Shown: one piece after another, positions 5,994 to 63,046 of the stretch | How the letters are laid out: each line of letters begins with the position of its first letter | Numbering within the stretch: the first letter of the stretch is position 1 | Source of the DNA: an uncultured Gammaproteobacteria bacterium | GTDB lineage: Bacteria; Patescibacteriota; Microgenomatia; CAYXHB01; CAZYTL01 | Direction: 5' to 3' | Assembly: GCA_964650355.1 (NCBI GenBank) | Contig: CAZYTL010000002.1 | Coordinates: 6,964-70,963, forward strand | Length of the DNA stretch: 64,000 bases | The notes under the pieces: generated by a model | What the model was told of the DNA's origin: nothing | The model's input: the letters and a program-made list of their open reading frames with translations, nothing else | Database searches by the model: none | Made by a program: the position numbers and the translations under genes

Positions 5994-6016
5994 TTAAAAT
6001 TTATTCCTTTATCCCA

Positions 6017-6190
6017 TCTTTGATTTTGCCATCGTGGATGTGGATTTGGTGCTTGGTGCGTTTGGCAACTAAAGAACTATGAGTGACGACTATGTTAGAG
6101 CTCTGGTAATGGCGGTGCTTTGCTGTCCGTCCCCGGAGATTTTATTGGGATAAAATTTTTTTAGGTGGGCAATGCCAAACCGATCCTTGA
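6017..6190 (-). pseudogene. Degraded partial duplicate of the ABC ATPase gene at 7251..7946 (C-terminal and signature-motif segments with an internal deletion)
   Basis: 6017-6066 is identical to 7283-7332 (50/50 nt). 6100-6190 aligns with about 7470-7565 at roughly 85% identity. About 105 bp are missing between the two blocks. No intact ORF remains. Confidence 0.55.
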
Positions 6191-6211: not shown

Positions 6212-7198
6212 CTATGCTCGCGTTTGGACGACCTGGTAAAGAGGTACTTCAAATTCTTGCTCGGTTCTTCTAAGAATCGGGTTATCGATTGGAAATTGTT
6301 CACTTTGCTTTGGAGGAGTACTTAACCCTATCCCCCCTAACGCTAAATACCTATCAACGTATAATCCCAAATTAGGTTCGCCTTTTTTGGGAAAGTAATA
6401 AGGAGCAAGAATGTTGCTAGGCCATACTCCATTAGGCTGATCTCCTAGCTTAGATAAAAAATAATCAGTTGCTTCGCTAGCCATACCTTGCTCTGCTAAA
6501 GGTTGTGCCGGATCCCAGGCCGAAACAATAATTATCTCTACTTTTTGTTGCCAAGCATCCTTTATTGGCTGCCGCAGTAATCCAATTTGTTCTGGTCCGT
6601 TTAGCATATTGACACGGAAACCTCGGGTATAACTTTTTCCTCCCAAACCAATTTGCGGTGGCCAAGGAGCTTTGATCGTGGCTTCTGTATATCCTCCCAT
6701 TAAGCTCGTCCAAGGAATTGTTACTATGCCAAATGCTCCTGTCTCACCACTACCAGTAATTTTTGCGTGCTGAAATAATACTTCACCTTCCAAATCGATG
6801 GTTGGTTTATATATCGATGTCGAATGTTCCAGATCTTGAATACTAACTGGTAAAACTTGATTTTTATCATCATCTTCTCTAACTTTATCCTTTAATGAAC
6901 TTGGTCTCGCCCTGAGAGGTTGGGGTTCACCAATCAACTCTACATCACCTTTCTTAATCCATTCAGCAAATGGCCCAAGGCGAGTATCTAAATAGAGAGT
7001 AGGAGATCTCTCGACATCTCTTTCAGGTGCTACCCGGGAAGAAGCTAACTCTTGTGAGTCAGGTGTGGGTATTAGACGACCTAATGCAGCACCTGCAGCA
7101 AAGATAGTTCCTGTCCTTATTGCTTCAAGTAGTTGTCTCCTAGTAATTCCTAACCTTGTCTTTTCATCATCAGGAAGGGCATTTTCTGCTTCGGTCAT
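6212..7198 (-). CDS. Secreted protein of unknown function with a twin-arginine (Tat) signal peptide
   Basis: 328 aa. The N-terminus TRRQLLEAIRTGTIFAAGAALG matches the Tat consensus (RRxLL plus an h-region). No recognisable catalytic motifs. Confidence 0.6.
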   Translation of the reverse strand: MTEAENALPDDEKTRLGITRRQLLEAIRTGTIFAAGAALGRLIPTPDSQELASSRVAPERDVERSPTLYLDTRLGPFAEWIKKGDVELIGEPQPLRARPSSLKDKVREDDDKNQVLPVSIQDLEHSTSIYKPTIDLEGEVLFQHAKITGSGETGAFGIVTIPWTSLMGGYTEATIKAPWPPQIGLGGKSYTRGFRVNMLNGPEQIGLLRQPIKDAWQQKVEIIIVSAWDPAQPLAEQGMASEATDYFLSKLGDQPNGVWPSNILAPYYFPKKGEPNLGLYVDRYLALGGIGLSTPPKQSEQFPIDNPILRRTEQEFEVPLYQVVQTRA

Positions 7199-7250: not shown

Positions 7251-7946
7251 TCAATCTTTCGAAGCAGATAAGTGAAGACCGTCTTTGATTTTGCCATCGT
7301 GGATGTGGATTTGGTGCTTGGTGCGTTTGGCTACTAAAGGGTCATGGGTGACGACGATAATGGTGACTTTTAGTTCTTGATTCAACTCTTCAATTAATTG
7401 AAGTATCTCACTACCTGTCTTGGAGTCTAAATTTCCGGTAGGTTCGTCTGCAAGAACTATTTTGGGATTCATAATTAGAGCTCGAGCAATGGCGGTTCTT
7501 TGTTGTTCGCCTCCGGAGATTTTATTAGGGTAAAAGTTTTTCCGGTGAGCAATACCGAAGCGGTCCATGAGTTCCTGGGCTTTGGTATTGGGATTGTAAG
7601 ATAATTTCACGCGGGCGTAAATGGTTGGAAGTAAAATGTTTTCCATGACGGTGAGTTTGTTGATCAAATTAAATTGCTGAAAAACGAACCCGATCAGTTG
7701 ATTCCGGAGTTTGGAAATTTGTCTGTCCGACAGTTGGGCAACATCTTTACCATCTATGAGTAACTGTCCACTGGTGGGAGTATCCAACAGGCCAATGATG
7801 TGCATGAGAGTGGACTTGCCCGATCCAGATGCACCCAAGATACCCAGAAATTCTCCGTCTTTGATCTTCAATGAGATTCCCCTCAGTACTTCGGTAGATT
7901 CTTTGCCGATTTGGAAGGATTTGGTGATGTTGCGAAGTTCTACCAT
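7251..7946 (-). CDS. ABC transporter ATP-binding protein, MacB/LolD/DevA-like
   Basis: Walker A (GASGSGKST), signature (ISGGEQQR), Walker B ([12 protein letters not shown]) and H-loop (VTHD). 231 aa. Confidence 0.85.
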
Positions 7947-31168: not shown

Positions 31169-33019
31169 TTACTGGTAACCTTTGGCCTGAAGGGAAAACA
31201 ACCGCGCGTATTTACTATTTTGTTTCATTAGTTCTTCATGACTCCCCTGCTCGATGATGCGGCCCTGATCTACAACCAGGATTTTGTCTGCCCTGCGCAC
31301 GGTAGAAAATCTTTGGGAGACGAAGATGAGGATTTTGCCTTGGGCTTTTTTAAGTAGCTCGTTAAAGATGTTTTCTTCGGCTTCCGGATCCACGCTGCTA
31401 GTGGGCTCGTCCATGATGAGCACGTCGGCATTTTTTCTGAATAGCATTCTGGCGATACCGATTCTCTGCCATTGGCCGATGGAAAGGTCTACCCCTTGGT
31501 CAAACTCGGGAGTGAGAGGATTTTCCCATTTCAAGGGTAAGGATTCGATATAGTTGTCAATGCCGGTTTTGTGGGCTGCCTGTTTAACTTCTGACAGCTT
31601 TTCCAGTCTGGTGATATCTCCGTAACCAATGGATTCTTTGCCTGTGAAGGGATAGGTTTCAAATCTTTGAAACAGAATGCCCAATTTGTTTCGCCACGAT
31701 TGGAGATCAATTTCTGTCAGTTGGTGGTCACCAATCAGAACTTGGCCTTTTTGAGGATCGTAAAATCTGGCGATGAGTTTGACTAAAGTTGATTTGCCGG
31801 CGCCGTTTTCACCGACGATGGCAATCCGGTCACCAGGATTGATTTGTAAATTAATGTTTTTCAGGATCCAGGGTTGTTCATGGCGATATTTAAACCAGAT
31901 ATCCTCAAATTTAATGGCATATTTTTGCTGATTGTTAAGCTTAATGCTGCCATCTTGATCCCTGATGGCAGGCTGAAGATTTAAGAACCATACCAGATCG
32001 GTGACGAACATATAATTTTCGTAGATCTCTAATAAAGCTGACACCAAACCGCTGAGATTGCTTTGAGCTGATCTCAGAGCTCTCAAGTACATCTCAAAGG
32101 AACCCACGGTGATTTTTTCAGTGATCACTAACATGATCATCCAGACTGAAATTGACAGTTCAAAAATTGATAATGGCAAATAGGTAATGACGTGAGATGA
32201 TTCCCGTTGTTTGTCTAGTTGATATTGTTGGTTAAGAACGTCAGCCTTGACGCTGCGCATTCGGTCGATCAGATAATCTGATAAATTAAGAATTTTGAGT
32301 TCCATGTAGTTTTTGTTGTAGGTTAAGTAGCTGTTCAACCAGCCCCACAAGCGGTTGAGCGGAGCCAACTTAGTTTGCAAATGGTATTCTTTTTTAATAA
32401 ATTGCTGATCGATTAAAAATTGGGGTAGGGCAACGATGATGATGCCCAGAGAAATTAAGGGCTGGAGAAGGATAAGTAAGCCGACCGCAGAGAAAAAGCC
32501 GACTAAATAATTAGGCAGGTTGGACACGGGATACATCAGGCCCCAGGCCCGTTGGCCTGATTCCCGTTCAACTTTGGTAAAGCGGTCTTTAAATTCGGGA
32601 TCTTCCAAGGTGGTGAGATCCAGTTGAGCCATTTTTTCTCCCATTAGGCAGTAAATTTCGGCGCTAAAGGTGCGGGAAAGATTAACCCTGAGAAAGCCAT
32701 TTATATTGCTTAATAAACTCCGAAAAAGTTCTATCAGCAATCTCAAGCCGATTAAAATGCCAATACTATAAATGACTGGTTTAAGGTGAGGATTGCCGAT
32801 ATTTTGGACTAAGCGATCAAGAATCAGTTTCTCAAGATAAAACCCAGGCAGGCTGGAAAATCCCCACAAAGCATTGAAAATGATGACCAAGATTACCAAC
32901 CGGAGGTTGATTTTGGCAGCTAGGCGGAAGACTTGTTGAAACACAAACAGCACCTGCTGCAGACGATCAAGAGCTAATTTAGGTCGGGAAGGGGTAGTTG
33001 AAGTTGAAGACTCAGCCAT
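31169..33019 (-). CDS. ABC exporter, fused permease and ATPase (MsbA-like, type I exporter)
   Basis: 616 aa. Six TM helices, Walker A (GENGAGKSTLVKL), signature (LSIGQWQR) and Walker B (ILIMDEPTSSVD). Confidence 0.85.
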   Translation of the reverse strand: MAESSTSTTPSRPKLALDRLQQVLFVFQQVFRLAAKINLRLVILVIIFNALWGFSSLPGFYLEKLILDRLVQNIGNPHLKPVIYSIGILIGLRLLIELFRSLLSNINGFLRVNLSRTFSAEIYCLMGEKMAQLDLTTLEDPEFKDRFTKVERESGQRAWGLMYPVSNLPNYLVGFFSAVGLLILLQPLISLGIIIVALPQFLIDQQFIKKEYHLQTKLAPLNRLWGWLNSYLTYNKNYMELKILNLSDYLIDRMRSVKADVLNQQYQLDKQRESSHVITYLPLSIFELSISVWMIMLVITEKITVGSFEMYLRALRSAQSNLSGLVSALLEIYENYMFVTDLVWFLNLQPAIRDQDGSIKLNNQQKYAIKFEDIWFKYRHEQPWILKNINLQINPGDRIAIVGENGAGKSTLVKLIARFYDPQKGQVLIGDHQLTEIDLQSWRNKLGILFQRFETYPFTGKESIGYGDITRLEKLSEVKQAAHKTGIDNYIESLPLKWENPLTPEFDQGVDLSIGQWQRIGIARMLFRKNADVLIMDEPTSSVDPEAEENIFNELLKKAQGKILIFVSQRFSTVRRADKILVVDQGRIIEQGSHEELMKQNSKYARLFSLQAKGYQ

Positions 33020-43042: not shown

Positions 43043-44887
43043 TTACTCTTTATAGCTTTCGGACTGGATACGGAAGAGTTTGGCATAGAGGCCATTATGT
43101 TTCATTAGTTCCTGATGGCTGCCCTGCTCCACTAGTTTGCCTGATTCGATGACCACGATTCGGTCAGCTCTTTTCACAGTAGAAAATCGGTGGGAAATTA
43201 ATATCATGATGCGTTTTTTCACTGTACGAATGAGTTTATTAAATATTTCTTCTTCACTCTCCGGGTCTAAGTTGCTGGTCGGTTCATCAAGGATAATGAT
43301 TTTTGATTTTCTAAACAGGGATCGGGCAATGGCCACTTTTTGCCATTGGCCGGTTGAAAGTCCTACACCACCTTCGAGCTCTCTGATTAAAGGAGTTTGA
43401 TAGCCTTGGGACAAGGAAGCTAAATGATCGTTAATACCGGTGAGTTTGGCTACTTTTTTAATTCGATCTAAGTTGGAAATCTGGCTGATTTGACCGTAAC
43501 CGATACTTTCCTGGGCGCTCATGCCATAAGTCTCAAAATCTTGGAATAAAGCGCTGATGAGATGCCAATAATCATGGATGTCAAAATTTTGAATATTAAT
43601 GCCATTGACTAAAATCTGCCCGGATGTAGGTTGGTAGAAACGGCAAAGCAACTTAACCAAGGTGGTTTTACCGGCACCGTTGTGTCCTACGATGGCAATA
43701 TTTTCCTGAGGGTTGATAGTAAAGGAAATGTCTTTTAACGCGTAACGATTGGCGTTAGGGTATTTGAAAGAAACGTTATGAAAGTCAATTTGTTTGATCT
43801 GTTCAAAGGATATTTTGGGGCCCTGGTCAGCGGTTTCAGGAAGATTAAGGATAGTTTGTAATTTTTCAATAAAGACCGAAGTTTCTCTCAGACTGGCATA
43901 ATTATCAATAATTCCCTTGCCCTGATCAGAAAACCGGTAAGTGGTATTGATCAGTAGTTGCCAATTACCAATGGTTCCAGATCCGGCGATCAGTTGTCGC
44001 AGATAAAGGTAGCTGGTGGCAAAGATACCGGCATTAGGTAAGATAGCGCCAATAATTCGGCCTCTAAGTAGTTGGTTCTCTACCTGTTCATAAAATCCTA
44101 ACGATTTGTTTTGCAGTTGAATTAACTTGTTTTTAATGTAGCTCCCGATGTTTAAGATTCTGGCTTCATAACTGCCCTTGATGCTCTCCAAAAATTCCAT
44201 ATAAATATCCATGTAACGACTGACTTTCGAAGTTAAAGCTACCCGCTGGGTGATTTTTTTAACGGCGGGATTTACAGTTAAAGCCCTAGGAATTTGGACA
44301 ACCACCATGATCAGTAAATATAACCAACTGAATCCCAGAATCACTCCACCGGTGACGATTAGGGTAATGGTGGAAGCAACTAAGCTGACTGCTTGGTCTA
44401 CCAGAGGAAAAATCCGCATAGCGCTTTCACGCTTAACTAATACATATTTATCCCGGAAATCGCTGCTTTCAATGGTAGTAACAGGCAAAGCAGCATGTTT
44501 ACTGGCCAAGTCAATTTCAAGTTGAGAGACTAGCCTTCTCTGCAGGATCCGGCCGATGACTATCCGATGACGAAAGCTATATTGATCCCAAGCATCTACA
44601 ATAAAGTGTCCGGCAATAATTAAGGTAATTCTGAAGAGAATAACAGAAGGATCAATCTGGCCGATGAGGGTTAAAGTGTCGATAGTGAGCTTGATAAAAT
44701 AGGCATTGACGACCGGATGAATGCTTTTGTATGTTTGCAAAAATAGCAATAGCCAGATCTTTCTGCCCGCTACCTTGTGACTGTAGGAAAAGCTGAATTT
44801 GACTGCCTGAAGTATGGATTGAATATAATCGGTATGTTTCTTCATGAAGGATAAATAATTGTTAGCTTTGCCCCTAGCTGGACCCAT
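43043..44887 (-). CDS. ABC exporter, fused permease and ATPase (second MsbA-like paralog)
   Basis: 614 aa. Walker A (GHNGAGKTTLVKL), signature (LSTGQWQK) and Walker B (IIILDEPTSNLD). Confidence 0.85.
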   Translation of the reverse strand: MGPARGKANNYLSFMKKHTDYIQSILQAVKFSFSYSHKVAGRKIWLLLFLQTYKSIHPVVNAYFIKLTIDTLTLIGQIDPSVILFRITLIIAGHFIVDAWDQYSFRHRIVIGRILQRRLVSQLEIDLASKHAALPVTTIESSDFRDKYVLVKRESAMRIFPLVDQAVSLVASTITLIVTGGVILGFSWLYLLIMVVVQIPRALTVNPAVKKITQRVALTSKVSRYMDIYMEFLESIKGSYEARILNIGSYIKNKLIQLQNKSLGFYEQVENQLLRGRIIGAILPNAGIFATSYLYLRQLIAGSGTIGNWQLLINTTYRFSDQGKGIIDNYASLRETSVFIEKLQTILNLPETADQGPKISFEQIKQIDFHNVSFKYPNANRYALKDISFTINPQENIAIVGHNGAGKTTLVKLLCRFYQPTSGQILVNGINIQNFDIHDYWHLISALFQDFETYGMSAQESIGYGQISQISNLDRIKKVAKLTGINDHLASLSQGYQTPLIRELEGGVGLSTGQWQKVAIARSLFRKSKIIILDEPTSNLDPESEEEIFNKLIRTVKKRIMILISHRFSTVKRADRIVVIESGKLVEQGSHQELMKHNGLYAKLFRIQSESYKE

Positions 44888-56816: not shown

Positions 56817-57830
56817 ATGGTTGATAAGATTGTCAGATCATTATGTTGTTTTTCTGACAATCCTGGGCCGTGGTGCGTAGAGAGAGCTGAGCAGAGAATA
56901 AAAAGATTGGAGAATCACGGATTCACGGTGCAAACTCAACGGTTGTGTACAGAGCTATTTGCACCCAAATGGCTGGAAAATAGGATTTGGGATCGAACCG
57001 TGCTATTAAGTGTGGGAACTGTAAGTTATAAAAGGGCGATGAAGATGCTGCCCAGCTATTGTAAATGTCCCCGGATCAGTTTTAATGTGGATTTAACTAA
57101 AGAAAAGATCAAGAATCTTCATGCTCGGTTGTTATTTAAATTAATAAAGCACGCTCCAGAAAATACTTTTAATTTCGCGTATGTATTCAACAACCCATTT
57201 TCTTCACCCTTCTTTCCTGCGGCGAATTATCAAAAAGAAGGTTTTGCCATTGGATTGCAGCCGACTGATTTGGCTGAAGGGTGCAAAACTTTAAAACAAT
57301 GGTTAACAAGAGTCCGGGAAGTATGGGAAGAGATTGAGGTACTCTTCAAACATGACGATCAATTTTTAGGGATTGATTCTTCTGTCGCTCCCTTATTTAC
57401 CGGTAAGAGCAGCTTAGTAAATTTTATTAAAAGGATAGATAGCTTTTCTCATTCGTCAACCACGAATGTTTACTTGAAAATAAGTAAATTTTTGAAAGAG
57501 CACAACCCCAAACCGGTGGGTTTGTGTGGATTAATGTTTCCTTGTCTTGAGGATTTCGAATTGGCTGAAGAGTATGAGAAGGGTAATTTTTCGATTGAAA
57601 AAAATTTGTTTTTGTCACTCCATTCTGGTTTAGGCATTGATACTTATCCTATCGGAGTGGACGAGTCTCCTGATCGGGTGGTTGAGATACTAAGATTGGT
57701 CCAAGATCTATCAAATAAATATGAAAAACCTCTATCAGCGCGATTTGTATCTGATGGTAAAGCTAAAATCGGAGATAGAACTAATTTTCAGAATCAGTAT
57801 TTGAAAGATGTAGTGGTTAGGGAGCTATAA
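56817..57830 (+). CDS. Hypothetical protein
   Basis: 337 aa. No confident family assignment. Confidence 0.4.
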   Translation: MVDKIVRSLCCFSDNPGPWCVERAEQRIKRLENHGFTVQTQRLCTELFAPKWLENRIWDRTVLLSVGTVSYKRAMKMLPSYCKCPRISFNVDLTKEKIKNLHARLLFKLIKHAPENTFNFAYVFNNPFSSPFFPAANYQKEGFAIGLQPTDLAEGCKTLKQWLTRVREVWEEIEVLFKHDDQFLGIDSSVAPLFTGKSSLVNFIKRIDSFSHSSTTNVYLKISKFLKEHNPKPVGLCGLMFPCLEDFELAEEYEKGNFSIEKNLFLSLHSGLGIDTYPIGVDESPDRVVEILRLVQDLSNKYEKPLSARFVSDGKAKIGDRTNFQNQYLKDVVVREL

Positions 57831-58142
57831 ATTTTTTGGTTGCCAGTTGAATCGGGTGAGATCTACAGTTGAGCCTTGGAAAACGATGCCTTCGGACTGG
57901 AGACGACGAATTTTTCCGGGAATACCACCTTGGCCAGCATAACCATGCATGTGACCGTCAGACCCGATGACTCGATGACAAGGAATGTTTTTCAGGTCAG
58001 GATTGTGTTTCATGAGTAACCCGACTGACCGGGCAGCCTTGGGGCTACCTGCCAGTTGGGCAATCTGTTGATAAGTGGCCACTTTGCCGGCCGGAATCTG
58101 ACTAACAACATGGTAAACCCGACGGGAGAAGTCTGAGGACAT
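57825..58142 (-). CDS. ogt: Methylated-DNA--protein-cysteine methyltransferase, C-terminal DNA-binding/active-site domain only
   Basis: Active site IPCHRVIGSDG and HTH. 105 aa. Confidence 0.8.
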   Translation of the reverse strand: MSSDFSRRVYHVVSQIPAGKVATYQQIAQLAGSPKAARSVGLLMKHNPDLKNIPCHRVIGSDGHMHGYAGQGGIPGKIRRLQSEGIVFQGSTVDLTRFNWQPKNL

Positions 58143-58648
58143 AGATGAATGTTACCGGGAAACTGTGAGTGAGTCAACGAAAGGAAAAGACGACGGCGCG
58201 TGCTTAACGGACCGACAACGTGTTTTAATTTCCCTGAATTTTGTTAGTTAAAAACACCGAATTTGTAACCAAATAGATCATGGCAGCCGGTCGAAATATT
58301 CATTAATAAAAGAGATAATGACTATCTCCCAGACAATCCCTCCCAGAGGGTGATGTCTAATGCGGGTTTGAGTGAAGGTACGAGTTAGAGTTGGTAGAAG
58401 TTTTTTCAGACGAACTATCAATCATATTTTTATTACCGGTAGGGATCGTTTTTTGAAGATTCGACCATAAACGGCTATTTGGTTTCTACTAACTGAATAG
58501 TAGGTTAGATAGAGACCTTGTCGAGCAGACTAATCTTTTATCGAGTTTGATTTTGAAAATAGCTCTGGTTTATGAACTGAGCATTTAAAACTGATTATTG
58601 TCTTCGTCGATCTGACTAGATTAAAATGGTATTATAAATAATTAAGTT

Positions 58649-58789
58649 ATGGAAGAAACTCCAACGGATCAAACATCAACCGCCCCTGTGAAACAAACTA
58701 GCGACAGCCCTACTCCGGTCAATTCGTATAGTCCAGCACCTGAAACTCCGCAAAGTACAGAAAAGATAGAATCTAAAAGTAGTAGTTGA
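58649..58789 (+). CDS. Possible small S/T/P-rich upstream ORF (46 codons). It is in frame with the downstream gene and separated from it by a single TGA.
   Basis: The ATG at 58649 gives MEETPTDQTSTAPVKQTSDSPTPVNSYSPAPETPQSTEKIESKSSS, then TGA at 58787-58789, immediately followed by the ATG at 58790. Confidence 0.25.
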   Translation: MEETPTDQTSTAPVKQTSDSPTPVNSYSPAPETPQSTEKIESKSSS

Positions 58790-59590
58790 ATGGTTTGGTT
58801 AATATTGGGAGGATTAATTTTAATCGTTTTAGTAGCCGGAGGCATATATTATTGGCTGCAAAAAACACCAAATTCTAACACGGCACTAACTCAAAATATC
58901 CAACCAACTCCATCAGTCCCATCCATTAAAGAGCAATTAGTAATTGGAACTGACGCTACTTTCCCTCCGATGGAGATGTTCGACGGCTCAAACAACTTGG
59001 TTGGTTACGATATCGATTTAGGCAATAAAATTGGTGAAAAGTTAAACACCAAAGTTGAGTTTAAAAATATCCCCTGGGATCAGCTATTTACATCTCTGGA
59101 GTCGGGAGATGTGGACATGGTGATTTCCGGAGTAACCATAAATGATGAACGGAAACAAACTTATGATTTTTCCGAGCCTTACCTAAATAACGGCCAAGTA
59201 GTGATTGTCCAACGGATTAATCAGGATATTAATTCGGTTAACGACTTGCAAGGGAAAAAGATTGCAGTTCAGAAAGGCACCACGAATGAAGAACAAGCAT
59301 ATAATTATACCGATAAACAATTAGTTTTAGCTGTAGATAATTTTATTCAAGCTACAGAATTATTAGTAGATGGCACCGCTAATGCTGTTTTTTCCGATTT
59401 AGCTGGCGCTAAAGGAATTATAAATGACCACCCAGAATTGAAAATTGTAGGAGAGCCGTTTACTTCAGAATATTACGGTATCATGTTTGCCAAAGGCAAC
59501 CAGGATTTAGTAAGTAAGGTTAATGATACCCTTGATAACCTTAGACAAGAAGGGGTGCTGGTGTTTTTGAAACAAAAATGGTTAGAATAA
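58790..59590 (+). CDS. Periplasmic substrate-binding protein (SBP family 3, amino-acid type) with an N-terminal membrane anchor
   Basis: Motifs GTDATFPPMEM and DMVISGVTINDERKQ. 266 aa. Confidence 0.8.
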   Translation: MVWLILGGLILIVLVAGGIYYWLQKTPNSNTALTQNIQPTPSVPSIKEQLVIGTDATFPPMEMFDGSNNLVGYDIDLGNKIGEKLNTKVEFKNIPWDQLFTSLESGDVDMVISGVTINDERKQTYDFSEPYLNNGQVVIVQRINQDINSVNDLQGKKIAVQKGTTNEEQAYNYTDKQLVLAVDNFIQATELLVDGTANAVFSDLAGAKGIINDHPELKIVGEPFTSEYYGIMFAKGNQDLVSKVNDTLDNLRQEGVLVFLKQKWLE

Positions 59591-59594
59591 TTTA

Positions 59595-61802
59595 ATGAGG
59601 TTCAGTATCCGGACGAAATTATTATTGGGTTTTGCCTTATTAGGGTTATTATCTTCTCTGGTACAGGTTTTTGGGGTTGTAATTATAGAAGATTATTTTC
59701 ATGCTCAGGTTGAGCAATCATTAAAAGACAAAGCTGACCTAGCAGCTACCCAAATATTAAACCTCAGATCCAGAATCGAACTGGACCATTTAGGAATTGC
59801 AAGAGAGTATGGCTTATTAGAGTCTGGTGATGTTAGGCAATTGGCGGGAATAATTGATTTCGTTTTAAGCCAAAATCCCTTTTATCAAAAAATTACTATC
59901 CTCTCCCCTACCGGAAAAGAAATTCTGAAGATAGACCAGTTTTCACAAATCCCCGACGAAAGTTTAGATTTTGAAATTCCTACCCAATCATTTACTCAGG
60001 CTTTGGACGGCAATACTGGTGTTTCTAAAGTTTATTTTTTAGAACCAAGCTCTTCTCCCCAAGTCGACATATTTACACCGATTTTATCGTTTGATAAACA
60101 AGTTATCGGGGTGATAAAAAGCCAAATCAGACTGGATAGCTTGTGGGATGTCTTAGCACAAATTCAGATAGGTAAGCAGGGATTGGTGTACGTAGTTGAT
60201 GACGAAGGCCGGCTAATTGCCCACCCGGATAGAGCGTTGGTATTACAGGCGCCAAATTATGCTGAGCGGCCTTTAATTAAAGCGATGATTAACCATCAAA
60301 CGAATCAACTAACTGACGAGGATTTTAATTACCTCAATGATAAGCAAGAACCGGTAATCGCTATGGCTAAGTTAATTCCCGATCTGAACTGGGTGGTGAT
60401 AGTAGAGGAACCCCAGAGTGAAGCTTTCAGTCAAATCAATATATTAAGGAGTGTATTTCGTGGGGCCACGGTAGCGTCTATTGGGTTACTGATTCTGATT
60501 TCTTTTTTCTTAAGTCATAGATTATCCCAACCAATTAAGAAATTACAAAGTTTTTCAGAATCATTAAGTAAAGGAAACCTACGCATCAGATCCGATATTT
60601 CAACCGGTGATGAAATTGAAGATTTATCAACGTCGTTTAATTCGATGGCCAGCCAATTAAACTCTTTGGTAGATCAACTGGCGGAAAATAACCAAAATCT
60701 GGAACAGGAAAAAACTCACGTGGAGGCCGAACGCAATAAATTGTCGATTATCATGCACGAAATTACCGACAGTGTGATTGCCGTTGATAAACAAAGAAAA
60801 ATTGTAATTTTTAATAAAGCTGCGGAAAAAATAACTGGATACCAAATAAGTGAGGCAAAAGATAAACCGATCAGTGATTTGCTTAGACTTTATGGCCAAA
60901 ATGGTGAAATTTCCGTAGATATCTATTGTCCGATAAAACCAGGCGATTATGAGGGTCTAGTATACCATCAAGATAAGGTTAAATTAGTGGGTAAGGAAGA
61001 TAAAACGACTTATGTAAATATAGTTTCAGGAAAAATCAAAGAAGGCGAATCAGTAAATTTGGGTACTATATTAACGATCCACAATGTTACGCCAGAAAGA
61101 GAACTGGAAAAGATGAAGCTGGATTTCGTGGCCATGGCTGCTCATGAGCTGCGAACTCCTTTAACTACGGTTCTGGGCTATCTGTCTTTTATTCAGAAGC
61201 CTAAGACAGCCGATAAACTCGCAGAAAATGAACGAGAATATTTATCAAAGGCGATGGTTAGCGCCACCCGTCTGAACCGATTAATTGATAATTTACTAGT
61301 AGTATCCAAGATTGACCAAGGTAGAATGGTGGTGAATGTGAAACCGACCAATTTGGGGAAGTTAATTGAAAAGATGGCTAAGGAATTTACCAACCTGGCT
61401 CAGGTTAAGGGTTTGCAAATGAATATTGAAACTGAAGATAATCTGCCCGAAGTAATGGCTGATCCGGTAGCATTAGAAGAAGTGATTATCAACTTAGTGG
61501 GTAACGCGATTAACTACACTCTATCAGGCAGCATCACCGTCAAAGTGCGCAGAAATGAAGACCAGGTAATGGTTTCCATAGCTGATACAGGGAAAGGCAT
61601 TCCTAAGGAAGCTATTCCGCATTTATTTACCAAATTTTTCCGAGTAATCGGAGAATTACAATCAGGAGCGAAAGGTACCGGATTAGGGCTTTATATTTCT
61701 AAGAAAATTGTTGATTCTTTGGGAGGAAAAATATGGGTGGAAAGTAACTTAAACCAGGGATCAACTTTTTATTTCAGTCTACCGATTGCCAAAATGGATT
61801 GA
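59595..61802 (+). CDS. Sensor histidine kinase (two TM helices flanking a periplasmic Cache-like domain, then HAMP, PAS, HisKA and HATPase)
   Basis: H-box MAAHELRTPL, G-boxes GKGIP and GTGLGLYISKKIV, and a HAMP region. 735 aa. Confidence 0.85.
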   Translation: MRFSIRTKLLLGFALLGLLSSLVQVFGVVIIEDYFHAQVEQSLKDKADLAATQILNLRSRIELDHLGIAREYGLLESGDVRQLAGIIDFVLSQNPFYQKITILSPTGKEILKIDQFSQIPDESLDFEIPTQSFTQALDGNTGVSKVYFLEPSSSPQVDIFTPILSFDKQVIGVIKSQIRLDSLWDVLAQIQIGKQGLVYVVDDEGRLIAHPDRALVLQAPNYAERPLIKAMINHQTNQLTDEDFNYLNDKQEPVIAMAKLIPDLNWVVIVEEPQSEAFSQINILRSVFRGATVASIGLLILISFFLSHRLSQPIKKLQSFSESLSKGNLRIRSDISTGDEIEDLSTSFNSMASQLNSLVDQLAENNQNLEQEKTHVEAERNKLSIIMHEITDSVIAVDKQRKIVIFNKAAEKITGYQISEAKDKPISDLLRLYGQNGEISVDIYCPIKPGDYEGLVYHQDKVKLVGKEDKTTYVNIVSGKIKEGESVNLGTILTIHNVTPERELEKMKLDFVAMAAHELRTPLTTVLGYLSFIQKPKTADKLAENEREYLSKAMVSATRLNRLIDNLLVVSKIDQGRMVVNVKPTNLGKLIEKMAKEFTNLAQVKGLQMNIETEDNLPEVMADPVALEEVIINLVGNAINYTLSGSITVKVRRNEDQVMVSIADTGKGIPKEAIPHLFTKFFRVIGELQSGAKGTGLGLYISKKIVDSLGGKIWVESNLNQGSTFYFSLPIAKMD

Positions 61803-61867
61803 TGTGGTTAATAATATAAATTAGTTTGGGATTTAATTAAATGATCAAATAAAGTAACTCTTATCCG

Positions 61868-62263
61868 ATGAAATTAAACATGTCTAAAAGAATTTTATTA
61901 ATTGAAGACGAACAAATGATTCGAGAGATGTACGAGATCGCTTTGAAAGAAGCTGGTTACAAGGTGAATTGTGTTAAAGATGGAAAGGAAGCTTTGGAAA
62001 TATTAAAACAACCGAACGTTAACTACGATCTAGTACTATTAGATATCCTGCTCCCGGAATTGAATGGAATGAGTGTGTTGAATGAAATGAAGAAAAATGA
62101 CTCGCCTTCGAAAAATATTCCAGTAATTCTATTAACTAATCTGGGAATGGAAGGACTGGTCAATGAGGCTATGAATTTGGGAGCGGAACAATATTTAATT
62201 AAATCAAATATTTTGCCCCAAAATCTGGTAGAAGAACTAAAAAATTTCTTCACAGCACGGTGA
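61868..62263 (+). CDS. Single-domain response regulator (receiver only)
   Basis: Receiver domain only, with a phospho-acceptor pocket (LLIEDEQ...DLVLLDILLP...). 131 aa. Confidence 0.85.
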   Translation: MKLNMSKRILLIEDEQMIREMYEIALKEAGYKVNCVKDGKEALEILKQPNVNYDLVLLDILLPELNGMSVLNEMKKNDSPSKNIPVILLTNLGMEGLVNEAMNLGAEQYLIKSNILPQNLVEELKNFFTAR

Positions 62264-62337
62264 TATGCTTAGTGATGATTTAATCTGACATCCACCGATA
62301 TACGTCAAGATTAACGTGATTTTTAATATTAAACTGC

Positions 62338-62625
62338 ACACCTTCCCTTTAACCGGGCAACTTTTTCAATAATTCCTCCCTGACCAGCGTAGCCATGCAT
62401 GTGTCCGTCAGAGCCGATGACTCGATGACAAGGAATGTTTTTCAGATCAGGATTGTGTTTCATGAGTAACCCGACTGCCCGGGCAGCCTTGGGGCTACCC
62501 GCCAGTTGAGCAACCTGTTGATAAGTGGCTATTTTGCCGGCCGGAATCTGACTAACAACATGGTAAACTCGCCGGGAGAAGTCTGAGAATGTTATCTGGA
62601 AACTAAGAGTGAGTCAACTAATTAG
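62338..62625 (-). pseudogene. Truncated duplicate of ogt. The start codon is lost, the C-terminus is divergent, and the copy extends about 45 bp into the former 5' UTR.
   Basis: About 90% nt identity to 57880-58185 over roughly 260 bp. The ATG is replaced (ata aca ttc), with an in-frame TGA upstream. Only a ~44-codon internal ORF remains (MKHNPDLKNIPCHRVIGSDGHMHGYAGQGG...). Confidence 0.6.
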
Positions 62626-62656: not shown

Positions 62657-63046
62657 TTACTTCCTAATTCTCGGAATCAATTTCCCGGGAACTTTTCTAA
62701 CCTTAATGGTTCTATAACCTAAGATTTTGGCCTTAACCAGTCTATGCAGTCCATCTAGCAGTAGCCATTTACCTCTCCAGTACATGATATCCAAGGGGTA
62801 TCTTAAATCACAGTTCAGTGTTCTGGTATACTCTTCAAGGTATTTTTCTGGATTCTCAACTACCTCATTGGGCTTTAAATCGTAATATCCTTGCTCCGTG
62901 TTCCAAAAAGGAATTTCAAAGTGCCACACTAGTTTAGAAAGAGCCATTTTTTCAACTGGAAGTATTAGAGCCCAAACCTTACGTTCATCCCACTTAAAGT
63001 CAAATCCCACCTCCCGGATAATTTTGGGAACCTTTCTGATACTCAT
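62657..63046 (-). CDS. Hypothetical protein with a ParB/sulfiredoxin-like DGxHR motif
   Basis: 129 aa. LLLDGLHRLVKA resembles the ParB/Srx-fold signature. Confidence 0.35.
   Translation of the reverse strand: MSIRKVPKIIREVGFDFKWDERKVWALILPVEKMALSKLVWHFEIPFWNTEQGYYDLKPNEVVENPEKYLEEYTRTLNCDLRYPLDIMYWRGKWLLLDGLHRLVKAKILGYRTIKVRKVPGKLIPRIRK

Follow-up and report, generated by a model that had tools for sequence, protein, structure and literature searches.

Gene content of the locus

The 64,000-nucleotide stretch of DNA that was analysed (the window) carries a pair of full-length ogt paralogues that point in one direction and lie 4.45 kb from each other; one (ogtA) is live and the other (ogtB) is dead. 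Between them are a non-coding spacer and a three-gene sensor module, as outlined in Table 1. The ORFs and Pfam matches agree here with the original prediction for this DNA, in which the repeats were said to bracket a non-coding stretch, a binding protein, a kinase and a receiver-only regulator.

Table 1. Coordinates of the genes, repeats and lesions at the ogt locus, as positions in the window.
Feature	Position	Strand	Basis or remark
DUF711 gene, convergent with ogtA	56817-57830	+	Pfam; left synteny anchor shared with L020
ogtA, intact 105-aa single-domain MGMT/Ogt gene	57825-58142	-	ORF, PF01035, TIGR00589
Repeat copy A, high-identity tract	57921-58181	-	promoter and codons 1 to ~75 of ogtA
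ogtA core promoter (predicted), TTGACT-17-TAACAT	58149-58177	-	consensus scan
Spacer, 608 nt, non-coding	58182-58789		between ogtA promoter and SBP start
Enclosed three-gene sensor module	58790-62263	+	Pfam, NCBIfam
SBP_bac_3, membrane-anchored protein	58790-59590	+	Pfam
dCache-HAMP-PAS-HisKA-HATPase kinase	59595-61802	+	Pfam
Receiver-only regulator	61868-62263	+	Pfam
ogtB pseudogene, full length	62280-62621	-	promoter to restored stop
Divergent ogtB tail	62280-62370	-	maximum chi-square breakpoint, HMM match, identity table
Frameshift in ogtB, near codon 83	62345-62347	-	same in Logan L022
Repeat copy B, high-identity tract	62371-62621	-	10 bp shorter than copy A
10-bp deletion junction in ogtB	62586-62587	-	alignments; also in Logan L021
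p129, small ParB-N-terminal-like protein	62657-63046	-	directly upstream of ogtB, same strand

The reading frame of ogtA is intact, with an ATG at 58142 followed through 105 codons, and its 3' end shares 6 nt with the convergent DUF711 gene. OgtA matches PF01035 with 102.1 bits (cutoff 27) and TIGR00589 with 78.6 bits (cutoff 46.4), and it is a predicted member of the Ogt/MGMT family of O6-alkylguanine-DNA alkyltransferases, with which it shares the NP...IPCHRV active-site segment and a C-terminal L..EG. The acceptor Cys is present in its PCHRV motif (NIPCHRVIG), and the same codons are kept in ogtB. Whereas E. coli Ogt and Ada-C carry an N-terminal PF02870 domain (Methyltransf_1N), the 105-aa OgtA is the C-terminal domain alone; the Pfam search detected PF01035 only, and PF02870 is typically missing as well from the proteins of approximately 100 to 105 aa that make up the short-MGMT clade. 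The clade of OgtA comes mostly from unnamed metagenomic contigs, and a few members are labelled as Patescibacteria-type (e.g., Saccharimonadales). ATL proteins such as E. coli YbaZ (eATL) are similar to OgtA in size and likewise have a single MGMT C-terminal domain, but an ATL identity was rejected for both ogtA and copy B because both retain the Cys of PCHRV. Two matches from the ogt homologue search (P0010 and P0011) have PWHRV.

The -10 box of ogtA ends 6 nt ahead of the ATG, so the mRNA is probably leaderless. The promoter hexamers are invariant across copy A, copy B and the related gene of L020 described below (12/12 positions, compared with 8/17 in the promoter spacer; Fisher p = 0.003).

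The enclosed module has the same GC, GC3 and tetranucleotide composition as the rest of the window (tetranucleotide z from -0.6 to 0.9). The 608-nt spacer ahead of it contains a 46-codon ORF (58649-58789) that is in frame with the SBP gene and separated from it by one TGA. A search of Rfam with the spacer gave nothing over threshold (the best-scoring family, purD, reached 20.7 bits where the gathering score is 41), its fold z-score is an unremarkable -0.38, and it has no similarity to L020 or to anything elsewhere in the window. On the far side of ogtB, p129 has more than 150 homologues of at most 67% identity in CPR/DPANN, some of them named ParB-like in their source.

The two ogt copies form a direct repeat

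A BLAST comparison of the window with itself ranks the ogt pair as the strongest repeat in its 64 kb. Copy A (57921-58181) and copy B (62371-62621) are direct repeats with a spacing of 4450 bp. A repeat search resolves the pair into an ungapped core of 229 nt at 90% identity (57909-58137 and 62359-62587) and a second segment of 35 nt at 86% (58147-58181 and 62587-62621), which is 10 bp out of register with the core; BLAST merges both into one match of 261 nt at 87.7% (E 8e-91). Over the promoter and CDS nt 7-206, copy B is 92.3% identical to copy A. Differences fall once per approximately 10 nt, and the longest identical runs are 36, 32 and 31 nt.

These results bear out the prediction of same-orientation repeats of about 260 bp, 4.4 kb apart and roughly 90% identical. 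The prediction was mistaken as to which part of the gene is repeated. Because both ogt genes are on the minus strand, the repeated part is not the 3' two-thirds of ogt but its 5' three-quarters, namely the core promoter and codons 3 to approximately 72, and the proposed left limit at 57868 coincides with no boundary of any feature.

The repeats are also present in a second, independent assembly of the same sample (Logan, k=31, SRR14802573), which is 100% identical to the window. Its contig breaks fall exactly within the 32-nt and 36-nt runs common to A and B. One contig (L021) joins the 10-bp deletion of copy B to p129, another (L022) joins the B tail to the regulator gene and the start of copy A to the spacer, and a third (L023) joins the A tail to DUF711.

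ogtB is a full-length mosaic pseudogene

The second copy retains its promoter (62589-62617), with both hexamers intact, and has been damaged in two places. A 10-bp deletion, seen in the alignment and with 1 nt of microhomology at its junction, takes out ATCTATGTCC (58146-58137 in copy A), the ATG included; the loss of the start codon had been predicted. Further downstream, the sequence TTA AAG G GAA GGT has a G too many (or has lost 2 nt), which shifts the frame; the open frame stops prematurely at TAA 62329-62331, and the conserved EG, with its catalytic Glu, falls outside it. The longest ogtB ORF with a canonical start encodes 44 aa. ogtB is therefore a pseudogene, as was also proposed, because its ATG is deleted and a 1-nt frameshift severs the conserved EG and the C-terminus. 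The loss of the ATG weighs especially heavily since the message appears to be leaderless.

The original prediction also described this copy as truncated, which is incorrect. The Ogt homology of copy B passes the break in identity and extends approximately 30 codons beyond the repeat, reaching, after the frameshift, a restored stop (TAA 62280-62282). This stop lies 17 nt from that of the convergent regulator gene, as expected of a resident gene. Frame-corrected OgtB matches positions 1-81 of the 81 in PF01035 with 103 bits, and it scores 154.7 bits against a family HMM compared with 139.4 for the in-frame part alone. The tail fits the family motif EGVxF...V(D/N)L..(F/Y)xW.

Identity between the copies changes abruptly along the gene. 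The first 251 alignment columns are 91.2% identical and the following 75 are 44% identical. At the protein level the heads share 96% identity and the tails 37%, the latter being typical of family members that share only approximately 60% in the head. The breakpoint, at about codon 70-75, is in register (maximum chi-square 81.7, a value that 0 of 2000 permutations reached). A patch of approximately 260 bp in ogtB, comprising the core promoter and codons 1 to approximately 72, is of the ogtA lineage and is joined in register to a much older, divergent ogt tail. For annotation, this means one live short MGMT gene and one full-length mosaic pseudogene rather than a truncated insertion marker.

Comparison with a relative lacking the module

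Only one close relative was found, a sequence of 1176 bp (L020, from JGI 3300056879). It has the order HhH-GPD, 125 nt, ogt and convergent DUF711, and its ogt is the orthologue of ogtA, with 83% protein identity. The 5' end of L020 is given as an unknown gene X in the JGI gene call; this was rejected, since in the correct frame it is the C-terminus of HhH-GPD. The DUF711 genes are 87% identical in nucleotides and 91% in protein, and ogtA is L020-like throughout (84% in the tract and 78% in the tail). L020 lacks approximately 6 kb that are present in the window (58190 to ~64240), and this segment holds the sensor module together with copy B, p129, a glyoxalase gene and a gene for a 225-aa protein. 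The comparison with this relative shows a form of the locus without the module, but the indel is not bounded by the repeats, because copy B, p129, the glyoxalase gene and the 225-aa gene also lie inside it.

A GTDB genome scan anchored on DUF711 gave 19 loci at 53-66% identity, none with an adjoining ogt or module, and so provided no synteny that could be used. Metagenome scans gave 0 matches to an exact 23-nt ogt pattern and 0 confirmed loci for p129 peptide patterns. The surroundings of the nearest ogt homologues (P0003 and P0004) are not syntenic with the window, and the nearest p129 homologue (P0014, on L024) shares only a neighbourhood of p129, a p150-like gene and a weak NUDIX match, with no ogt nearby. 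When proteins are clustered at 90%, those of the kinase, regulator, SBP and DUF711 genes each form a cluster of one, which leaves nothing to compare at strain level.

Within the tract, dS is 0.23 between A and B, 0.71 between A and L020 and 0.48 between B and L020, and site patterns comprise 8 unique to A, 4 unique to B and 23 unique to L020. With L020 as outgroup, both copies of the tract fall in the A/L020 lineage, which identifies the donor lineage. Uniform decay after a whole-gene duplication was rejected, since a tail only 44% identical is incompatible with a tract dS of 0.23. A dN/dS of 0.10 suggested purifying selection on copy B; this reading was dropped as well, as the B branch has only 4 changes, of which 2 are non-synonymous.

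Origin of the shared tract

The best overall explanation, which we favour with some reservation, is that a patch of the ogtA lineage converted part of a resident, divergent ogtB and that the repeat arose as a by-product. In this process, homologous replacement, by gene conversion or some equivalent form of recombination, would have carried ogtA-lineage sequence into the resident paralogue after the split from the L020 lineage, and the direct repeat would reflect homogenisation and not the insertion of the module. It is the sharp, in-register switch in identity that argues for homologous replacement rather than for a module-insertion footprint. Both the mechanism and the family are already known, and in this sense the locus is ordinary. 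Conversion between bacterial paralogues has been described for Salmonella tufA/tufB and for rrn operons, with tracts bounded by homology (PMC5485169). As in those systems, the ogt copies are paralogues of the same genome and have in common a highly identical, in-register tract with an abrupt end inside the gene. They differ in that the recipient, ogtB, is a pseudogene today, homogenisation reached no more than part of the gene, and the core promoter lies within the tract; moreover, the ogt event is deduced from one genome. The locus can thus serve as a small, clear-cut illustration of how paralogues in a reduced Patescibacteria genome become homogenised over part of their length, and as a reminder that direct repeats can enclose a module without having been left by its arrival.

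Gene conversion requires homology at both ends of the tract. The 3' end of the tract is within the conserved core of the gene, and its upstream end falls at the -35 box, past which no similarity is detectable. It follows that either the promoter of the original ogtB was similar to that of ogtA, or the upstream end was joined illegitimately. Counting against conversion, RecA-type pairing would have been very inefficient if the whole of ogtB had once been as divergent as its tail. In addition, a search of 5.8 billion proteins with frame-corrected OgtB found no intact B-type ogt (the best new match, P0132, has 65% identity and an A-like tail), so the postulated older paralogue lineage is without a living witness. 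The synteny of A with L020 stops at 58189 and the homology of A with B at 58181-58185, only 4-8 nt away. We attribute this near-coincidence to the edge of the constrained promoter; it could instead reflect a single rearrangement event.

A second explanation, which we consider possible and rather doubtful, is an insertion of the Campbell type, in which a circle carrying the module and a piece of ogt recombined at a chromosomal ogt and left the repeats as its scar. The geometry is suitable: in the direction of ogt transcription the defective copy precedes the complete one, and direct repeats surround the module, much as the integration of suicide plasmids and episomes leaves direct repeats of a gene segment around extra DNA with one copy defective. 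The absence of the module from L020 is consistent with this, as is another complete gene with a decayed partial copy in the window (6014-6190 and 7279-7570), which brackets one gene. A single crossover, however, predicts that ogt homology ends with the repeat and that the empty site carries the upstream flank of copy B. Instead, ogtB is a full-length homologue whose similarity to Ogt exceeds the repeat, and the incoming ogt would already have had to be a mosaic of A head and B tail; the single ogt of L020 has HhH-GPD upstream and not p129, and the limits of the indel differ from those of the repeats. The repeats are therefore unlikely to be a footprint of the module's arrival. Also at odds with an inserted element are the native composition of the module and the absence of integrase, transposase or other mobile-element genes within approximately 10 kb on either side; no tRNA was found either. 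The original suggestion that the module arrived, or was rearranged, by recombination within ogt holds to the extent that a breakpoint does lie inside the gene, but not as an account of how the module came to be there.

We regard it as improbable that copy B is a mere 5' fragment of ogtA, with an Ogt-like C-terminus following by chance. The shifted-frame stretch (62351-62286) alone scores only 7.7 bits, against HMM positions 83-103, and 24 of 5000 shuffles equal or beat the alignment of the A and B tails. Against this, the 7.7-bit match ranks top of 2124 six-frame background chunks of the window and is collinear with the in-frame match to HMM positions 5-84, which it directly adjoins. Furthermore, B has not yet left the frame at residues 74-82 (IIEKVARLK), and these fit the family consensus isekiellk where nucleotide identity has already fallen to approximately 57%.

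An assembly artefact, in which variants from different strains were fused into the second copy or into its linkage, is very improbable. The source is a MAG, the repeat is unresolved in the k=31 Logan graph, and that graph does not by itself tell a linear arrangement apart from a deletion accompanied by a circle; yet the two assemblies match base for base, each copy is linked to its own unique flanks, and with differences every ~10 nt and no identical run longer than 36 nt, reads of 100-150 nt would phase the copies. Finally, it is barely credible that a functional short Ogt-like protein is still made from copy B, be it from an alternative start or by programmed frameshifting: the promoter hexamers of copy B are intact and its head departs from that of copy A by just 3 conservative amino-acid substitutions, but there is no in-frame ATG, GTG or TTG before Met44, an ORF starting there would lack the first 43 residues of a DNA-binding domain whose PF01035 match starts at residue 4, the frame terminates ahead of the conserved EG with no recognisable slippery site at the frameshift, and the few changes on the B branch are compatible with neutrality. 

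Recombination between the repeats

Whatever their origin, the repeats could serve for a rare RecA-dependent pop-out or duplication of the module. Deletion or amplification of this kind, which had been predicted, is possible in principle because of the identical runs. However, the 10-bp deletion divides the repeat unevenly, with approximately 229 nt on its downstream side and 35 nt on its upstream side, so most pop-outs would yield just one ogt, lacking a start codon, and should be selected against.

One reading goes further and sees an active population switch, in which the 4.45-kb module is popped out as a circle and the ogtB promoter acts as an antisense regulator; we consider this highly improbable. 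If it were true, the switch would yield a dead, start-less ogt and hence alkylation-sensitive, sensor-less variants, and the intact ogtB promoter, convergent on the regulator-kinase operon, might persist in an antisense regulatory role. Coexisting deleted and circular forms would be compatible with the k=31 assembly graph. Elsewhere in the window, the other pairing of a complete gene with a decayed copy hints at possibly recurrent homology-driven gain and loss of genes in this genome.

The repeat and the two ogt copies

When the 64-kb window is compared with itself by BLAST, the strongest repeat is an alignment of 261 nt at 87.7% identity (E 8e-91) between ogtA, the live ogt gene, and a second ogt sequence, copy B, some 4.4 kb away. 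A repeat search returned it as two pieces whose spacings (4450 and 4440) indicate a single repeat broken by a 10-bp indel. The original prediction of a same-orientation repeat of about 260 bp at roughly 90% is therefore confirmed, with 229 nt reaching 90% and the longer BLAST alignment not far below. As it also stated, the copies bracket a sensor module and a non-coding stretch, with a receiver-only regulator, a sensor kinase, an SBP_bac_3 binding protein and a 608-nt spacer lying between copy B and ogtA. Because both ogt sequences are on the minus strand, the repeat covers the core promoter together with codons 3 to ~72. It thus holds the 5' three-quarters of ogt, not its 3' two-thirds.

Coordinates of the ogt features, the independent contigs and the HhH-GPD equivalents (window numbering unless a contig is named)
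Feature	Coordinates	Strand	Details
ogtA	57825-58142	-	ORF, 105 aa; PF01035 102 bits, TIGR00589 78.6 bits, each above curated cut-off
ogtA promoter	58177-58149	-	TTGACT-17-TAACAT
Copy B promoter	62617-62589	-	Same motif as ogtA
Repeat piece 1	57909-58137 vs 62359-62587		229 nt, 90% identity, spacing 4450; repeat search
Repeat piece 2	58147-58181 vs 62587-62621		35 nt, 86% identity, spacing 4440; repeat search
L023	48116-57993		Logan contig, 100% identity
L022	58089-62443		Logan contig, 100% identity
L021	62539-64000, plus 9 kb past the window		Logan contig, 100% identity
HhH-GPD C-terminus	L020 1-41; L021 8764-8804 (~64243-64283)		Equivalent segments

The promoter motif of ogtA is common to copy B and to L020, a 1176-bp JGI contig that is the only close relative found (85% identity to 57135-58189). 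Across these three sequences the hexamers are invariant at 12/12 positions, compared with 8/17 in the spacer (Fisher p = 0.003). The -10 box (TAACAT) ends 6 nt upstream of the ogt ATG, in L020 as in the window, a distance which suggests that the ogt mRNA is leaderless; no Shine-Dalgarno sequence was found before the ATG (58140-58154; 62587-62594; L020 152-169). At its other end, ogtA overlaps the stop of the convergent DUF711 gene by 6 nt (57825-57830), an arrangement kept in L020 (479-484). The GC content of ogtA is 50% (GC3 47%) versus 34-39% in six neighbours from VIT to glyoxalase (CBS 44%); copy B has a genome-like 38% in its divergent tail. Two OgtA homologues of 102-105 aa, P0010 and P0011, have PWHRV in place of PCHRV, making them alkyltransferase-like (ATL) proteins and not true transferases.

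Copy B lacks ATCTATGTCC (junction 62587/62586), and the ATG is gone with it. From codon 3 it is open, with only three conservative amino-acid changes relative to copy A, until an extra G at ~62346 (TTA AAG G GAA GGT) shifts the frame and leads to a TAA at 62329-62331. The lost start codon and the pseudogene status proposed earlier both hold, the latter through the combination of start-codon deletion and frameshift. What does not hold is the description of copy B as truncated. In the other frame the sequence goes on as EGVQFNIKNHVNLDVYRWMSD and a stop, and this tail fits the motif EG(V/I)xF....V(D/N)L..(F/Y)xW found in OgtA, its L020 counterpart and further short MGMT proteins. Once the frame is corrected, the product aligns with all of PF01035 (positions 1-81 of 81, 103 bits), and a family HMM built without ogtA gives it 154.7 bits versus 139.4 bits for the in-frame part only. 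The restored stop lies at 62280-62282, 17 nt from the convergent regulator stop (62263). Judged by its tail homology and restored stop, copy B is a full-length ogt pseudogene.

Origin of the repeat

In a protein-guided nucleotide alignment, copies A and B share 91.2% of positions in columns 1-251, from the promoter to codon 75, and 44% in the 75 columns that follow, with a maximum chi-square of 81.7 at the breakpoint that was reached by 0/2000 permutations. Their proteins share 96% of residues 1-72 and 37% of the tail, a value typical of family members with only ~60% head identity. Since the similarity between ogtA and its orthologue in L020 is uniform (tract 84%, tail 78%, neighbouring DUF711 87%), the shared tract belongs to the ogtA/L020 lineage. 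Synonymous divergence over codons 3-69 (dS 0.23 for A-B, 0.71 for A-L020, 0.48 for B-L020) and the unique sites in the tract (8 in A, 4 in B, 23 in L020) indicate that the copy B tract coalesces with ogtA later than the L020 split. The B-specific branch carries 4 changes, 2 of them non-synonymous, too few to date the death of copy B. Uniform decay following whole-gene duplication can be rejected, as a dS of 0.23 beside 44% identity is impossible, and in-register recombination inside ogt is therefore required. To this extent the earlier suggestion of recombination within ogt stands; the reading of the repeats as a scar of module insertion is not supported.

The explanation that we regard as probable is replacement within a resident ogt paralogue. 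A divergent paralogue would have been the last gene of a small repair/detoxification cluster (NUDIX, HhH-GPD, glyoxalase and p129, a small ParB-N-terminal-like gene), in convergent orientation to the sensor operon. In register, ogtA-lineage sequence would have taken the place of the paralogue's promoter and first ~72 codons, by gene conversion or an equivalent homologous replacement, leaving the 260-bp direct repeat as a by-product; the gene is now inactivated by the start-codon deletion and frameshift. Gene conversion is documented between tufA and tufB, where the extent of homology sets the limits of the tracts (PMC5485169). The replacement proposed here is of the same kind. Against conversion, the tract stops at the -35 box with homology absent beyond it, and pairing with a very divergent recipient would be inefficient. 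The end of A/B homology is only 4-8 nt from the break in synteny between the window and L020 (58189), a coincidence attributed to the edge of the constrained promoter. An intact B-type ogt was not found among 5.8 billion proteins. The locus is an ordinary mosaic pseudogene beside a live paralogue and adds one more example to a known kind.

Relatives and alternative explanations

JGI called the 5' end of L020 (2-106, 34 aa) in the wrong frame, and it is not an unrelated ORF: in the correct frame, positions 1-41 end in YGSLALWESLET and a stop, the C-terminus of an HhH-GPD glycosylase. The window genome's HhH-GPD (L021 8196-8804) ends in YGSLALWASLET and a stop, just past the right end of the window (~64243). 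L020 thus reads HhH-GPD, 125 nt, ogt and convergent DUF711. The window genome reads HhH-GPD, a convergent 225-aa gene, glyoxalase, p129, the copy B pseudogene, the convergent regulator, kinase and SBP genes, the 608-nt spacer, ogtA and convergent DUF711. L020 is without ~6 kb, from 58190 to ~64240, which includes copy B and three more genes besides the module. The comparison with relatives envisaged by the original prediction thus finds the module absent, in an indel that the ogt repeats do not delimit. A duplicative, Campbell-type insertion of the module, in line with its suggestion that the module arrived by recombination, fits the repeat geometry; we consider it unlikely, as homology to Ogt continues in the defective copy B, and as other boundaries and another flank mark the empty site in L020. 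No integrase, transposase or tRNA was found within ~10 kb, the module is native in GC, GC3 and tetranucleotide composition, and its proteins are singletons at 90% identity clustering.

More distant relatives showed no synteny with the window. The distant genome L024 (4183-6334) and the window genome (L021 7227-10390) each have p129, a 150-aa protein (49% identical) and a NUDIX gene within ~2 kb, which suggests a conserved small neighbourhood of unassigned function. Because L024 also has this cluster, there is a weak suggestion that p129 is old at the locus and that the block was lost in the L020 lineage.

A partial duplication with a tail similar to Ogt by chance is improbable. The shifted-frame segment 62351-62286 matches positions 83-103 of the family HMM at 7.7 bits, ahead of every other non-ogt segment when all 2124 six-frame chunks of the window are scored (6.1 bits for the runner-up). 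Its match also abuts the in-frame match and is collinear with it, and these results support a real homology.

An assembly artefact is more doubtful still. The window is part of an NCBI contig, 174 kb long, that belongs to a metagenome-assembled genome of Patescibacteria (CPR), and a separate Logan k=31 assembly of run SRR14802573 can be compared with it. The Logan contigs end exactly within perfect A/B runs of 32 nt (57964-57995 / 62414-62445) and 36 nt (58083-58118 / 62533-62568); in a k=31 graph, contigs break at a two-copy repeat. Each copy keeps its own unique flanks (10-bp deletion/p129, B tail/regulator, copy A start/spacer, A tail/DUF711), so misassembly is unlikely, the graph by itself being equally compatible with the linear order or with a deletion plus a 4.45-kb circle. 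That copy B, with its start deleted and its frame shifted, is still functional is hardly credible.

Consequences and other observations

The minimal processing segment of RecA is ~25 nt, and where mismatch repair operates, a divergence of 10% makes recombination rarer by orders of magnitude. The repeat has identical runs of 31-36 nt, so the 4.45-kb unit could on rare occasions pop out or be duplicated. The 10-bp deletion divides the repeat unequally, with ~229 nt on its downstream side and 35 nt on its upstream side. Most pop-outs would therefore link a B head without a start codon to the tail of copy A; such events would cost the cell ogt as well as the sensor module and are expected to be disfavoured by selection.

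A second bracket of this style is present on the minus strand, where the intergenic 6014-6190 repeats, in decayed form, the 3' end (7279-7570) of an ABC ATPase gene (7251-7946). It is 90% identical to 7279-7358 and 80% to 7475-7570, has a ~116-nt internal deletion and its own stop codon, and together with the live gene flanks a 328-aa gene at 6212-7198. Upstream of the SBP gene, 58649-58789 (+) is a Pro/Thr/Ser-rich ORF of 46 codons in the SBP frame, separated from the SBP ATG by one TGA and called as a gene by Logan; it is possibly an upstream ORF, or else was once an N-terminal extension. Finally, 31217-31495 and 43094-43369 have a weak direct similarity (65% over ~280 nt) and are probably two paralogous genes.
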